Source of the DNA: a virus
Lineage: Duplodnaviria > Heunggongvirae > Uroviricota > Caudoviricetes
Length of the DNA stretch: 9,898 bases
IMG/VR virus record: IMGVR_UViG_2698536372_000014
Direction: 5' to 3' (one strand)
The notes beneath the pieces are model-generated. The model had not been told where the DNA came from. It was given only the letters and a program-made list of their open reading frames with translations, and ran no database searches. The translations under genes were made by a program, and so were the position numbers. This document shows positions 1-9,875 of the stretch, one piece after another (the first letter of the stretch is position 1; every line of letters starts with the position of its first letter).

Positions 1-335
1 CCCAGCCGCCCACCAGGAACGAGCTGACCGCGCACAATATTGATTTCATCAAACTGCTCGTCGTCTATGAGAAGTCCGGCATGCGTCAGCACATCCAGTG
101 GTGCTTTCAGGATATTGTCCAGGTCACGACGGCGCTTATCCGGTGGCTCTGCAATAATCTTTATCACCAGCCTTCCGGACAGGTTTAATTTCAGCCGCTG
201 CTGGCGAACAATTAGCGCCACATCACGGCGATAACGCTTTCCGGCTTCCGAGATGAAATACGTATTGCCATGACGTCGCCAGTAGGTATTCACCGTCGGC
301 GGGTAAGGCAAAACAAATTCTATCCGTTCAGTCAT
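1..335 (-). CDS. rusA: RusA-family Holliday junction resolvase; start codon at 335..333, 3' end runs off the window edge
   Basis: Manual minus-strand translation from ATG 335..333 gives MTERIEFVLPYPPTVNTYWRRHGNTYF...PDKRRRDLDNILKAPLDVLTHAGLLIDDEQF...GGRL, matching the RusA signature as I recall it (LPxPPS.N, RRRDLDN, DD.Q, GGRL). The ATG directly follows the TGA of the upstream gene (TGAATG). Not in the ORF track because no stop lies within the window. Confidence 0.75.
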   Translation of the reverse strand, partial: MTERIEFVLPYPPTVNTYWRRHGNTYFISEAGKRYRRDVALIVRQQRLKLNLSGRLVIKIIAEPPDKRRRDLDNILKAPLDVLTHAGLLIDDEQFDEINIVRGQLVPGGRL

Positions 336-1577
336 TCATGCTTTCCACTTCAGGACACCCGAATTTCTCGCGTGCATTAAAAAACGAATCAGCAACAACA
401 GCTGGCTGCCGTGTTTTTCTTCAAAATCTTTTACCCCAGCGTGCAGTTCGTTATGACATTTACGGCACAGCGGAATAACAAACAAATCATCAGCCTTTGT
501 TCCCATCCCTCCCAGTCCATGACCAATGATGTGATGCGGATCATCTGAATTTCTCGCGTGCATTAAAAAACGAATCAGCAACAACAGCTGGCTGCCGTGT
601 TTTTCTTCAAAATCTTTTACCCCGGCGTGTAGTTCGCTATGGCATTTACGGCACAGCGGAATAACAAACAAATCATCAGCCTTTGTTCCCATCCCTCCCA
701 GTCCATGACCAATGATGTGATGCGGATCATCTGCCTGATTACCGCACGTCATGCATTTCTGCGTTTTTACCCAGCGCGTGTATACAGGCATCTCTTCCCG
801 TTGTGGTTTCTGGCGCTGGAGATACTGAGCCGGTGACTCCGGATCAACGGCAATGCTGACCACCGTCTTTTCCTGTGGCGGGTTTTGCTGGTGGGCGTGA
901 GGCAGCGGCGCAAGATTTTTTGTGCGCTGCTTCAGTATGATGGTGGCGGTCTGCTCTCCCGGTACGATGTCGCTTTCACGGTACATTGAGCGGATTTTTT
1001 CCGCACGCAACCCCAGCGAACGACGTAATACCGCTTCCGGTAGCGCGTCCGCCACCTGATTGCGGACCGCCCACCAGGATAATTCAGCCAGAGATAATTC
1101 ACGCTCCTGCGTACCGCTTATTGCGTGACCGATGACGTCAATCATCCATGCTGACAGGTTTTGATGAGCAAGTTGCTCGAGTGATTCGGATGTCTGGTCA
1201 CGCAGCTGGTTGTCGCAGTGCCAGCACAACACCATTGCGCCGGTACCGTAACGGTGAATGACGGTTTCACTGTGATGATAGTCACCATGAGGCCACTGGC
1301 AGGATTTGACATGACGCAACAGCCAGTCAGACAGTGCACCAGCGCCACCAACAGCACGAATCACACGCTCATTGCTGAAAAACGGCAGTAATGATTTATC
1401 CTCCGCCAGCGGCTGGCGAACGGCAGGGACGATGCCGGACGGCAGACCGCGCATGCTTTTCGGTTCCGGCTCCACAAGCACTCGAGGGTTATGGAATACC
1501 TGCATGGATTCACGGCCTGGTTTAAGGACCACCAACCCAAGTTCCGGTACCGGAACAGGTCGAAGTAATACCCGCAC
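336..1577 (-). CDS. DUF968 / Ref-like HNH (beta-beta-alpha-Me) nuclease-family prophage protein, YdfU-like, with an internal in-frame tandem duplication
   Basis: 413-aa ORF with GTG start at 1577 preceded by GGAGG 5 nt upstream. The C-terminus holds a 62-aa segment (HHIIGHGLGGMGTKADDLFVIPLCRKCH[S/N]ELHAGVKDFEEKHG...) present twice in tandem; His/Cys spacing resembles HNH-type metal sites. Position between hok/rem and rusA matches the nin-region DUF968 gene of Qin-like prophages. Family assignment is from memory, not a search. Confidence 0.7.
   Translation of the reverse strand: MRVLLRPVPVPELGLVVLKPGRESMQVFHNPRVLVEPEPKSMRGLPSGIVPAVRQPLAEDKSLLPFFSNERVIRAVGGAGALSDWLLRHVKSCQWPHGDYHHSETVIHRYGTGAMVLCWHCDNQLRDQTSESLEQLAHQNLSAWMIDVIGHAISGTQERELSLAELSWWAVRNQVADALPEAVLRRSLGLRAEKIRSMYRESDIVPGEQTATIILKQRTKNLAPLPHAHQQNPPQEKTVVSIAVDPESPAQYLQRQKPQREEMPVYTRWVKTQKCMTCGNQADDPHHIIGHGLGGMGTKADDLFVIPLCRKCHSELHAGVKDFEEKHGSQLLLLIRFLMHARNSDDPHHIIGHGLGGMGTKADDLFVIPLCRKCHNELHAGVKDFEEKHGSQLLLLIRFLMHARNSGVLKWKA
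361..732. repeat. Direct tandem duplication, 2 x 186 bp (361-546 and 547-732), inside the DUF968 gene
   Basis: The two units are identical except for 4 substitutions clustered within 19 bp (copy-1 positions 438, 444, 451, 456). Unit length is a multiple of 3, so the frame is preserved; 3 of the 4 differences are synonymous and 1 gives Asn/Ser. Confidence 0.9.
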
Positions 1578-2404: not shown

Positions 2405-2560
2405 TTACTCCTCAGGTTCGTAAGCTGTGAAGACAGCGACCTCCGTCTGGCCGGTTCGGATTCGTACCTCGCAGAGGTCTTTCCTCGTTACCAGTGCCGT
2501 CACTATGACGGTTAAACAGATGACGATCAGGGCGATTAACATCGCCTTTTGCTGCTTCAT
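2405..2560 (-). CDS. hokD: Hok-family type I toxin (51 aa small membrane peptide)
   Basis: Translation MKQQKAMLIALIVICLTVIVTALVTRKDLCEVRIRTGQTEVAVFTAYEPEE matches the Hok/Gef family and, from memory, HokD/RelF closely: single transmembrane helix and the conserved RKDLCEV.IRTGQTEVAVF motif. Confidence 0.85.
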   Translation of the reverse strand: MKQQKAMLIALIVICLTVIVTALVTRKDLCEVRIRTGQTEVAVFTAYEPEE

Positions 2561-2617
2561 AGCCTGCTTCTCCTTGACCTTTCGGTCCGTAAGAGGCAAT
2601 CTATATGTGACGAGCAT
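2405..2617 (-). CDS. Mok-like in-frame N-terminal extension of hok (70-aa frame)
   Basis: The ORF extends hok upstream in the same frame (MLVTYRLPLTDRKVKEKQA-MKQQ...), resembling MokC as I recall it; GTGAGG lies about 8 nt upstream of ATG 2617. Confidence 0.5.
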   Translation of the reverse strand: MLVTYRLPLTDRKVKEKQAMKQQKAMLIALIVICLTVIVTALVTRKDLCEVRIRTGQTEVAVFTAYEPEE

Positions 2618-2660
2618 ATAGGGGCCTCACTTCGATTTATAGTCGGGTGGGGCTTTTATC
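2605..2660 (+). ncRNA. Putative Sok-like antisense RNA covering the mok translation-initiation region (boundaries approximate)
   Basis: Hok loci are normally controlled by an antisense RNA across the mok SD/start. The plus strand here has a possible -35 TTGACC at 2574-2579 and a hairpin (CCUCAC...GUGGGG) followed by CUUUUAUCU at about 2625-2660. Inferred from locus architecture; ends not determinable by eye. Confidence 0.3.
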
Positions 2661-2752
2661 TATCTGCCGTTGGTGTTCATGCCCGAGGCAGATAGCCTCA
2701 AGCACCCGCAGCAATCCTACTTAACTCTGCCGTTACAGCAAACCGTTTTCGC

Positions 2753-2895: not shown

Positions 2896-3654
2896 TCAAG
2901 TGCCTTTCCTGGTCCAGCCATATTTTTTGAATGCAGGCGCCGCTTCATCGGTTTGTAGCCATTCTGCAAATCGACGGGTTTCATCATTTGCATCCTGACG
3001 TACTGTAATGTTCATATCACGCCATATCACGTAGTCTGGCGCTATTTCCACGACATCACCAATTTCTGGATTACTGGCTGCCCAGTCAGCCCAGGTTATC
3101 CAGACATCTGCTCCAGGCTGATTCTCAAGAGCCTTACGTGCAGTTCCGCTATTGGGCGCATATAAAATAATATTTTTTCGGATTGCGGCGACAGTTTCTA
3201 TATTCCCTTTACGTCCGGCAATATCTTCCCAGACGCCAGTGCCTGATGTATTACTGGTACCACCACCATCATTAACAATTACGCCAATCCCAGGTCTGGT
3301 CAGGTCGTCAATACTCCGGATATTTTTAGGATTACCTTTCTTTACCAGTAAAATACTTTTTCGCAGATAAAGAGGCTGAATATCTTTTTCACTGAAGCTG
3401 TCTTTATGGTCCCGAATGATAGCCAGAGCAGATTGTTCTGATGCGCCAAACAAGATATCTGCATTTTTTTTGGCATCTTCATTCCATTTGTTCTGTGGGC
3501 CGTAATGAACGTTCACTATAATACCTGTTTTTTCGGCATAAAGTTTGGCTGCATCAAGCAAGGCTGTATGCGGGCCACCAGGACCATACAGATTGATATC
3601 AGCATAAGCAGCAGAAGACAGGAATATTAAAAAACCTGCCATTATGTTCCTCAT
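2896..3654 (-). CDS. Periplasmic substrate-binding protein, ModA/AcfC-like, with signal peptide; orphan (no permease or ATPase partner in window)
   Basis: 252-aa ORF with ATG at 3654 and AAGGAG 7 nt upstream. N-terminal signal peptide MRNIMAGFLIFLSSAAYA; the C-terminal AFKKYGW resembles the ModA-type ending. AT-rich codon usage and an AT-rich upstream region (3655-3900) suggest foreign origin. Confidence 0.7.
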   Translation of the reverse strand: MRNIMAGFLIFLSSAAYADINLYGPGGPHTALLDAAKLYAEKTGIIVNVHYGPQNKWNEDAKKNADILFGASEQSALAIIRDHKDSFSEKDIQPLYLRKSILLVKKGNPKNIRSIDDLTRPGIGVIVNDGGGTSNTSGTGVWEDIAGRKGNIETVAAIRKNIILYAPNSGTARKALENQPGADVWITWADWAASNPEIGDVVEIAPDYVIWRDMNITVRQDANDETRRFAEWLQTDEAAPAFKKYGWTRKGT

Positions 3655-3818
3655 AAAAAACTCCTTTTATTGGTTATCATGAAATAAAGTTATAAACACT
3701 ACAAATAATATATATTACATCCAGATAAACTTATCCGACTTTACCTCGTGCATAGCTTGTTATTTAAAGTCAACAAAATAAGGAAAATTATACGCATATT
3801 GAAGAGTATAAACCTTAC

Positions 3819-3846
3819 ATGTTGATTACATTTTTGTAATCAACAT
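3819..3846. promoter_or_regulatory. Inverted repeat ATGTTGATTAC-N6-GTAATCAACAT in the AT-rich region upstream of the SBP gene
   Basis: 11-bp perfect arms with a 6-bp AT spacer, about 170 bp upstream of the SBP start; candidate operator. Function is inferred. Confidence 0.3.
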
Positions 3847-3905
3847 CCTGTTTGGAATAGCCAGCCTTTAATGGATAACTATTTCTGACAATGCAATGAG
3901 TATAA

Positions 3906-4598
3906 TCAAGTCCATCTTCCACTGAGAATTAGAGGCGGCATGCTTTTTCCGGCTCTTGCCGGATATCCGTAATTGTCCATAATCTGCAGATTTATACCTT
4001 CTGCATGACCTGTCAGCGAAAATTTGTCCGGTGTTTCTACGGGAATGACATCAAAAGTTACACGCACTCGCGTTACCGTGTAGACCTACTTTCCTGCACT
4101 TGCAAGATCACAGTGGTGTAACCGTAACAGGAATTTATTCTCTGGACCGGCAGTAAATCCCTGAGTGGCGTGGTTCCCATATCAATTTCCCGCCAGGCAG
4201 CCTCCATTGCCAGCGTACAGGCTGGAGCCATGACCTGCCCTTTAAATCTGGCCCGACCATCCCACCGGACGTGTTCTTCTCCCCTGAACTTAGGTACAGT
4301 CATCTCCAGTGGCACAAAAGTGTCAGCGCCATAATTTTTGACCGTTATCGCGCTACGGATATTTTGTTGACTGGTGAAAATCACCCCGCAGAATCAGGCT
4401 TATTCCCTTAACCTGGGCTTTCATCCTGACCGCCGCCTCACTACGACCAATCAGACTGCCGATGCATTTTACCTTCATTGTTAGTATCATGATTTCAGGC
4501 CTGCACCATCCGCTCATTGCCCGGACTTCCGACAAATCCCGGCAACCATATCCCGGTGCTTGTTCAGCTCCCGCAGCGCGGCGCAGACTCGCTCCCAC
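3906..4598 (-). pseudogene. Degraded gene remnant(s): three adjacent minus-strand ORF fragments in alternating frames
   Basis: Fragments at 4598-4353 (only the part below 4514 is free of the upstream gene), 4384-4073 (103 aa, GTG start) and 4085-3906 (about 50 aa, FSLTGHAEGINLQIMDNYGYPARAG..., no usable start). None has a convincing start/SD. Identity unknown; only a weak, uncertain resemblance to a MOSC-like beta-barrel fold. Confidence 0.3.
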
Positions 4599-4659
4599 TT
4601 CTGGACATGATTCTTCGCCCTACGCAGTTCGCGATTTGCCATATGCAGCGATGGCAAAA

Positions 4660-5247
4660 TCAAATCATCTTCTCGCGTTGCAGTAAACGATGGCAGCGAC
4701 TGCACAATGTCCGCCACAGTTTCTGTTTTAATATCTTCCTGTGTTGCATCTTTCTGTACCGGTAACGAACACCGGCTGGCTGAGGAAAGGCTTTACCATC
4801 GGTTTCCGCTACCGATTCAACTTTCGGCTCTGCTGGTAAATTATCACCTGGTATGCAGTAACGAATTTTACCGTTCTGGTTTACGCGAATCAGACGACCT
4901 TTGCTGATTGCCATTGCCAGCGTTGAAGCAACTTTGCGGGATGTTGTACCGAACAGCGTAGCCAGTTCATCCGCCGTTTGTGGTCCGCGTTGTTCAATCG
5001 TCGCGGTTAAATCGCACTCTGAGATTTTCGCTTCTGTTGCCGTGGTGGTTTCTTCTGGCGCTGGCTGTTCCTGCTGAACGTTGTTATCAGCCACACGCCA
5101 GGTGTATACGCTTTTATCAACGAAGCCAGCCTTTTTCAGTTCCCACAGCTCGTTCAGTACTTCTTCACGACTGATATCAAGTCGCGCAGCCAGCTCTACC
5201 GACGTGGCTTTTCCCATCGCTTTCAGTGCGTCAAAAACAGTCTCCAT
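4660..5247 (-). CDS. Phage early-region protein with N-terminal winged-helix-like domain (DUF1627-like, tentative); appears frameshifted near 4765-4795
   Basis: The 195-aa ORF starts [43 protein letters not shown], but its last ~40 residues are unnatural ([18 protein letters not shown]...). A different frame is open from 4792 to 4514 with a natural-looking sequence ([37 protein letters not shown]...). A single frameshift would join them into one protein of about 245 aa ending at 4514. Confidence 0.55.
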
Positions 5248-5280
5248 AAATTTCCTCCCGGTAAAAAATCACTTCTCAAC

Positions 5281-7585: not shown

Positions 7586-7993
7586 ATGAAAAACGAAACC
7601 TTCGGTGCTCGCCTCTTATACAGGCGAAAAAAATTAAAACTGTCTCAGGCCGCATTAGGTAAGCTGGTCAAAGTGGCTCACGTAACAATTTCTCAATGGG
7701 AAAGAGATGAAACACAGCCAGCGGGGAAGAGATTATTCGCACTGAGCCAGGCGCTTCAGTGCTCGCCGACTTGGCTTCTTTTTGGAGATGAAGATAAGCA
7801 ACCAGGCGAACCGATCCCAGATAATCAGCCAGTCAATCTGACAGAAGATCAAAAAGAGTTGCTTCAACTGTTCGACGCACTGCCTGAGTCAGAGCAAAAG
7901 GCTCTGTTGTCAGAGATGCGTGCTCGAGTTGAGAATTTCAACAAACTTTTTGAAGAACTACTCAAAGCTCGCAAAAGAAGCGCAAATAAATAA
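7586..7993 (+). CDS. dicA: XRE-family HTH repressor DicA (cI functional analogue)
   Basis: 135 aa; the HTH region (LSQAALGKLVKVAHVTISQWERDETQP) and the strongly conserved FALSQALQCSPTWLLFGDEDKQP plus the C-terminal ALPESEQ...EMRARVENFNKLFEELLKAR match DicA as I recall it. Confidence 0.85.
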   Translation: MKNETFGARLLYRRKKLKLSQAALGKLVKVAHVTISQWERDETQPAGKRLFALSQALQCSPTWLLFGDEDKQPGEPIPDNQPVNLTEDQKELLQLFDALPESEQKALLSEMRARVENFNKLFEELLKARKRSANK

Positions 7994-8059
7994 CCCCCCT
8001 TTTTTTCGCAACTCTCTGTAATAAAAAGCACAAACTTTCAAATACTTGTGTTTTTTACA

Positions 8060-8125
8060 TCAAGAAGCTTAGGTTTTTCTACACAAAAAGCTTGACCATA
8101 ACTCTTAGGCTATTCTAAATTCTAC
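8060..8125 (+). promoter_or_regulatory. Putative promoter of the rightward dicB-type operon with flanking CTTAGG repeats
   Basis: -35 TTGACC (8092-8097), 17-bp spacer, -10 CTAAAT (8115-8120); CTTAGG at 8068-8073 and 8104-8109 brackets the -35. A GAGGA-type RBS and GTG 8201 follow about 80 nt downstream. Confidence 0.45.
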
Positions 8126-9822: not shown

Positions 9823-9875
9823 TTTCTGGTGACGTTTGGCGGTATCAGTTTTACTCCGTGACTGCTCTGCCGCCC
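9823..9875 (+). ncRNA. dicF: DicF small regulatory RNA (antisense inhibitor of ftsZ translation) with its 3' terminator
   Basis: TTTCTGGTGACGTTTGGCGGTATCAGTTTTACTCCGTGACTGCTCTGCCGCCC followed by TTTTT matches the 53-nt DicF sequence as I recall it, including the terminal GC stem and U-tract. Confidence 0.8.

Follow-up and report, generated by a model that had tools for sequence, protein, structure and literature searches.

The prophage gene ydfU encodes a DUF968 / HNH endonuclease. In the stretch of DNA analysed here, a window of 9,898 nucleotides, the 3' end of this gene consists of two adjacent and almost identical copies of the same segment, both of which carry His and Cys codons of the nuclease motif. 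This arrangement raises two questions: is the repeat a genuine duplication in the organism or a product of assembly, and, if genuine, does it provide the enzyme with a second active site? The original prediction, made from the letters of the sequence alone, had proposed a real duplication with both copies translated and a protein with two tandem catalytic motifs.

Anatomy of the repeat

The gene corresponds to a minus-strand open reading frame that encodes 413 aa (336..1577, with GTG as start codon at 1575-1577 and the stop codon at 336-338, from the ORF list and its translation). Its stop codon abuts the start codon of rusA (TGA then ATG, without any gap), an abutment that an in-frame event keeps. 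Direct alignment delimits two tandem units within ydfU, unit 1 at 361-546 and unit 2 at 547-732, identical at 182 of their 186 positions. Tandem Repeats Finder, run on the window, delivers the same repeat (361-733, period 186, 2.0 copies, 97% matches, no indels, score 718). The unit, which amounts to 62 codons, is in frame with the ORF, and a 186-bp repeat at 98% identity cannot have arisen by chance. As ydfU is on the minus strand, unit 2 is the N-proximal copy and unit 1 the C-proximal one. The N-proximal copy encodes approximately residues 283-344 (DDPHH...CRKCHSELH...ARNS), directly after C275-x2-C278, whereas the additional C-proximal copy encodes approximately residues 345-406 (DDPHH...CRKCHNELH...ARNS) and is preceded by ...LMHARNS.

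The four mismatches occupy unit positions 78, 84, 91 and 96 and therefore all fall within 19 bp, a patch located at 438..456 in unit 1 and at 624..642 in unit 2. Read as unit 1/unit 2, they are A438/G624, C444/T630, T451/C637 and A456/G642, so that the patch is A-C-T-A in unit 1 and G-T-C-G in unit 2. All are transitions and three of the four are synonymous (C374/C312, L378/L316 and A380/A318), the sole nonsynonymous one opposing N376 of the C-proximal copy to S314 of the N-proximal copy. The predicted in-frame 186-bp tandem duplication at 361-732 is thus confirmed by the repeat search, the alignment and the translation, and its four substitutions in 19 bp, three of them synonymous, by the comparison of the units and of their codons.

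The novel junction, placed at 542..551 from the sequence and the phase of the repeat, joins CATCT to GAATT. Exact microhomology at the borders is restricted to 1 bp (G). An imperfect motif, CAyCyG, recurs at the junction and at both borders (CACCCG at 356-361 on the left, CATCTG at 728-733 on the right); beyond this motif, neither inverted repeats nor longer microhomology were found at the borders of the duplication.

The prophage and its closest relatives

The window corresponds to the early (nin-like) region of a lambdoid prophage of PPompW type from an EHEC/EPEC-like E. coli. It carries the 3' part of rusA, which encodes a Holliday-junction resolvase and is cut by the window start (1..335, minus strand; identified from the annotation of near-identical loci), followed by ydfU, a small ORF, hokD/sok, paa, replication genes, a ydaT-like gene, genes of Cro/CI-type regulators, ydfC and DicF. 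The sok antitoxin RNA (2558-2707, minus strand; Rfam, 103.9 bits) adjoins hokD, and the DicF sRNA (9824-9875, plus strand; Rfam, 76.7 bits) stops 23 nt short of the window's right end. Another tandem repeat, of 23 bp (8050-8093, 1.9 copies, 86% matches), is intergenic and lies downstream of the dicA-like repressor gene (7586-7993).

All the PPompW prophages examined in a previous study are reported to be defective and to have undergone replacement of segments by recombination (PMC8112680), and the prophage that harbours the window is probably defective too. In the near-identical O103/O26 loci, RefSeq annotates the equivalent of about 3815-5250 (transferred from positions 3629-5061 of locus L004) as containing a pseudogene of a fimbrial protein and a DUF1627 gene with a frameshift, which fits the reported defectiveness of these prophages (PMC8112680).

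Every close relative has a span shorter by 186 nt, a single unit and a 351-aa protein, the length that had been expected of single-copy homologues. When unit 1 is removed, all but 2 of 9712 nt of the window match the prophage of the O103 strain RM8385; when unit 2 is removed instead, its first 3105 nt match EPSSH018 with a single exception. Besides the extra unit, the sole differences from the RM8385 prophage are at positions 1248 and 1260, 12 bp apart and both synonymous (Y110 and V106 of YdfU). The presence of G at both positions in this context was found in no complete E. coli genome, EPSSH018 having G1260 only. A simple conversion of these two sites from a known paralogue was rejected, because the paralogues that carry both G also differ at 1254 and 1257.

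Both units are circulating alleles

The patches of the two units are found separately in single-copy ydfU genes. The patch of unit 1, A-C-T-A (CHNELH), is found exactly in 102 complete E. coli records; it is the allele of the PPompW prophages of O145:H28, O55:H7 and O111:H8 and also that of EPSSH018. The patch of unit 2, G-T-C-G (CHSELH), is found exactly in 732 complete E. coli records and is the allele of the O26/O103/O111:H11 prophages, PPompW-like in O26/O103, and of other prophages. Within the first 3869 nt, the four patch sites are the only positions that distinguish A-type from G-type PPompW-like prophages. Furthermore, both alleles can be carried by different prophages of one genome, as in the O111:H8 strains 95NR1, 95JB1 and 7-55 62A: in 95NR1, the A allele belongs to the PPompW-like prophage and the G allele to a prophage adjoining potC, while 95JB1 and 7-55 62A appear in the match lists of both alleles. 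A third haplotype, G-C-T-A, is present in about 890 records. The 19-bp patch thus exists in E. coli in three or more haplotypes (ACTA, GCTA and GTCG), a footprint, at the level of the population, of short gene conversion among prophage copies of ydfU.

As both versions of the patch are standing single-copy alleles, two templates contributed to the repeat, which excludes a divergence of the copies after duplication. Point mutations that would have accumulated since an older duplication could account for differences that are all transitions and mostly synonymous. However, at none of the four sites does either unit depart from an existing haplotype, the remaining 182 positions are identical and no related genome carries the duplication in any form; this scenario, which is scarcely credible, was therefore rejected. 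The short gene-conversion tract evoked in the original prediction fares better, as a recombinational origin of the patch itself is plausible, but the patch is not a divergence acquired by the duplicated copies.

Two arguments drawn from the patch do not survive this result. First, because the alleles pre-exist, the synonymous bias is inherited from the population, does not result from selection on the duplicate and says nothing about translation; the clustered synonymous changes thus cease to indicate a real duplication with both copies translated. Second, it had been argued that identical copies would point to an assembly artefact and a clustered, mostly synonymous patch instead to a real duplication, but an assembly path through a collapsed paralogue also generates two adjacent alleles.

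Consequences for the protein

The YdfU protein of the window matches the Pfam family DUF968 (PF06147) with 301 bits (E value 3.6e-90; gathering threshold 27.8 bits), the best stretch covering residues 160-341 and a second stretch the duplicated part. It also matches the HNHc_6 profile above threshold (43.2 bits) and, over residues 1-343, PHROG 96, 'HNH endonuclease'. In an alignment of 26 homologues, no variation is seen at C275, H286, H287, G297, K299, D302, P307, C309, H313, H317, G328 and Q330, and almost none at C278. The codons of the first zinc knuckle, C275-M-T-C278, map to 744..755 (minus strand; from the correspondence between residues and coordinates), just outside the duplicated unit. 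Since the unit begins at D283, this knuckle has not been duplicated and belongs to the N-proximal copy only. The statement that the duplicated segment carries the His/Cys metal-binding core holds in part: the His-His pair, the CxxC-H motif and the following His are repeated, but the first knuckle is not.

The N-proximal copy, taken with its knuckle (residues 275-344), displays all the features of an HNH / His-Me finger, i.e. the CxxC knuckle, H286-H287, C309xxC312-H313, H317 and a beta-beta-alpha fold. The C-proximal copy (345-406) keeps H348/H349, C371xxC374-H375 and H379 but falls short of a full HNH motif, having two of the four zinc ligands and lacking the first CxxC knuckle. Structure prediction of the 413-aa protein by AlphaFold2 (mean pLDDT 77) separates the two copies in the same way. 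The N-proximal one is modelled with strands at 284-287 and 305-308 and a helix at 310-318 (pLDDT about 87-94); the C-proximal one has no beta-hairpin and pLDDT values of 33-67 (33-38 for residues 351-370), a low confidence that is partly an effect of the alignment, in which all the homologue rows are aligned to the N-proximal copy. The two tandem catalytic motifs of the original prediction are thus not borne out. The C-proximal copy probably does not form an independently folded active site, and we infer that it lacks function.

Selection might nevertheless have kept a real duplication, were both copies translated and active in a single chain that bears two catalytic HNH motifs. HNH enzymes often require two active sites for cutting both strands, the event is in frame, and the C-proximal copy has the catalytic His-His pair, the C-x2-C-H motif and the equivalent of H317. 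However, this copy lacks an invariant zinc knuckle and does not form its hairpin in the model, the synonymous bias comes from older alleles, the variant is unique to the sequence of the window and one module is the norm of the family. Moreover, selection on an early lytic gene is doubtful in a prophage type described as defective (PMC8112680). Altogether, a selected two-motif nuclease appears very unlikely.

YdfU also possesses, at residues 93-121 (1215-1301, minus strand), a Cys/His pattern of its own, consisting of C93, H101-H102 and C118-W-H-C121, of which C93, C118 and W119 are nearly invariant in YdfU homologues. AlphaFold2 models there a beta-hairpin (105-110 and 113-118) followed by a helix (119-125), with a pLDDT of about 90. 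This region may be a second, degenerate element of His-Me or treble-clef-like type. BLASTP detected no similarity between this N-terminal pattern and the C-terminal HNH of YdfU.

A single module is the norm and the junction is unique

Among the best 150 representatives of the DUF968 family (clustered at 50%), 147 have one HNH stretch, the three exceptions being two short fragments and one weak match in the N-terminal region. Nearly all the close relatives of YdfU have 351-352 aa, and one module is present in all 25 aligned homologues. An ancestral two-copy architecture, under which the claim of a duplication would fail, was rejected on these grounds.

The junction itself was sought with the 38-mer GATGTGATGCGGATCATCTGAATTTCTCGCGTGCATTA and with longer queries. 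It is absent from the 5,426 complete E. coli genomes searched. Indeed, a 200-nt query that crosses the junction matches 1,760 of the genomes, and in all of them just as two pieces spanning 187 nt, so that none of them contains it. The 38-mer is also absent from the GTDB representative genomes, IMG/VR and the JGI metagenomes, and the phage records searched for the two-unit form have one unit each and no junction. The same holds at the protein level: exact look-up of the 413-aa protein, with V or M as first residue or from an internal start, found no entry in a collection of about 15 billion proteins, and no protein covers more than 63% of a 62-aa peptide that spans the protein junction. The de-duplicated protein of 351 aa is an exact database entry, found on about 1,000 contigs.

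Three homologues of ydfU carry other internal duplications. P0017 (BDLA01000090.1; L009 2003-2601) has a perfect in-frame tandem duplication of 300 bp in the middle of the gene, with 100% identical copies; P0016 has an in-frame tandem duplication of about 84 aa at its N-terminus; P0148 has one of 22 aa around the CxxC knuckle. As in the window, these are sporadic, single-source, in-frame tandem duplications that affect the same gene family; all three lie on short draft contigs. Unlike in the window, other segments are duplicated, and the units of the window are the sole heteroallelic case. Such events therefore occur, or get assembled, sporadically in ydfU.

Duplication or assembly artefact

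An alternative is that the duplication arose during assembly or polishing, two copies of the 3' part of rusA-ydfU with different alleles having been falsely placed in tandem. Candidate non-graph steps are scaffolding, gap closing, local reassembly during polishing, or an overlap-layout join defeated by the four mismatches. This hypothesis directly accounts for units that are exactly the two alleles of the population, for a junction found in none of the collections searched and for the near absence of microhomology at its borders.

The location of the repeat points in the same direction. Position 1 of the window falls within 1 bp of a mosaic boundary in rusA that is major and widespread among lambdoid prophages. 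When a 600-nt query centred on the window start (L001:2701-3300) is searched, about 1,900 of the 3,144 matching E. coli records align just from query position 300/301 rightwards, and the two rusA-ydfU paralogues of 95NR1 diverge strongly at window position 1. An arbitrary slice would hit this boundary with a chance of about 1 in 5,000. The start of the window therefore resembles a contig end, placed at the boundary of a prophage repeat. The duplication is just 360 nt from this apparent end, in a segment that related genomes carry repeatedly: the rusA piece can occupy as many as 8 places per genome and the repeat unit as many as 4. This proximity to an apparent contig end in a multi-copy segment makes the phasing of the patch alleles unreliable and would also permit a false duplication if a non-graph join (scaffolding, gap closing or polishing) had been used. 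At the right end of the window, however, no such mosaic boundary was found.

The nature of the assembler also matters. If the contig came from a de Bruijn graph, an origin suggested by its left end, this would favour a real junction, as a pure de Bruijn assembler should not be able to emit a junction whose k-mers have no support in the reads. Exactly 77 nt separate the start of the repeat unit from its first variant site, a distance equal to a k that assemblers commonly use, which gives at most a faint hint of an artefact. However, the unit ends 90 nt after the last variant site, and the arm of a bubble at k=77 would be 173 nt long, not 186; this k-mer signature is inconsistent and was dropped as evidence. 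Finally, the perfect in-frame internal duplication of another ydfU homologue makes real events plausible. An artefact is thus a serious possibility, which we nevertheless regard as somewhat unlikely.

Possible origin and significance of the repeat

The reading towards which we lean, if modestly, is that of a recent, strain-private tandem duplication of 186 bp, in frame, which affects the 3' end of ydfU and carries two standing patch haplotypes. The junction would thus be real in the organism, a claim that we hold with slightly better than even confidence, whereas the presence of the two alleles side by side in the cell is less likely than the junction itself. Several routes could lead to this structure. 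An illegitimate and nearly homology-free unequal exchange between two ydfU alleles of the cell could have produced both the junction and its heteroallelic units. Alternatively, a perfect duplication might have been converted afterwards by a co-resident paralogue. In a third route, the assembler would have routed one of the units via the allele of another, collapsed prophage copy.

Further points weigh against a strain-private duplication. An exact microhomology of 1 bp at the borders is atypical of slippage-type duplications. Furthermore, the heteroallelic units require an extra event if the duplication is real, but come free with a false duplication or a mis-phased path through a collapsed paralogue. 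The closest backbones checked (O26 RM10386 and O103 RM8385) have one copy of the unit, with the G allele; as they hold this allele only, a co-resident donor of the A allele is undocumented for that background.

Under the favoured duplication, the resulting protein would consist of an intact HNH (His-Me finger) module with an appended partial repeat of 62 residues. The consequence is most likely neutral or mildly harmful, with no indication of a new function. The defective and recombining nature of PPompW prophages (PMC8112680) fits such a neutral change of structure, in an early gene that is not under selection. As it stands, the repeat amounts at most to an isolated structural variant of a prophage nuclease gene that is itself uncharacterised, and has little biological weight. 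If the junction is real, it would provide a small and clean example of an exchange between prophages that makes variation at the level of a domain, and a convenient natural construct for assessing how far the HNH module of YdfU tolerates a C-terminal extension.

A more ambitious outcome would be that the duplication is real and expressed and that the C-proximal repeat folds against the first module or swaps with it, generating a Ref-like nuclease whose two catalytic His-Me sites lie on one chain. Such an enzyme could cut both DNA strands without dimerising, and the locus would be a snapshot of a tandem-nuclease architecture arising by recombination between prophage alleles; we consider this outcome highly improbable. 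More generally, the locus calls for caution in genomes rich in lambdoid prophages, where 'diverged' tandem copies can be two circulating alleles adjoined by recombination or by an assembler; as this is so, a patch rich in synonymous changes is no evidence for selection or translation.

Comparison with known families

The gene of the window is the same gene as single-copy ydfU, whose 351-aa product is known as WP_001265290.1 in O26/O103, as WP_001265289.1 in O145/O111:H8 and as YdfU of the Qin prophage in E. coli K-12, and it occupies the same place, between the small upstream ORF and rusA. The DNA of the window is identical to that of its single-copy relative save for the extra unit and the two synonymous sites. 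The protein of the window differs from single-copy YdfU by 62 extra residues, which include a second DDPHH...CRKCH...H without preceding CxxC, a feature found in no other member.

DUF968 (YdfU) and DUF1364 (YbcO, PDB 3G27) together constitute group 7 of the His-Me finger superfamily (PMC5714182). DUF968 proteins have been described as carrying a C-terminal zinc-finger HNH motif, and an N-terminal domain similar to Lambda Orf/NinB has been proposed for those of Gram-positive bacteria (PMC4118853). A Foldseek search returned nothing significant. A phmmer search against all PDB sequences gave no match to P1 Ref (PDB 3PLW) at E<=1, and a weak match to YbcO (E 0.34).

The label 'Ref-like' given to the protein in the original prediction is fair for the fold of the HNH core, which YdfU shares, but the phmmer result does not support membership of the Ref family. 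P1 Ref is a RecA-dependent HNH endonuclease, whose cleavage targets D-loops, with, according to literature cited in PMC5714182, a short basic N-terminal segment; YdfU differs from it by an N-terminal region of about 270 residues that AlphaFold2 folds with confidence. YbcO, from the DLP12 prophage, is for its part a stand-alone domain of 96 aa that has neither this N-terminal region nor a duplication.
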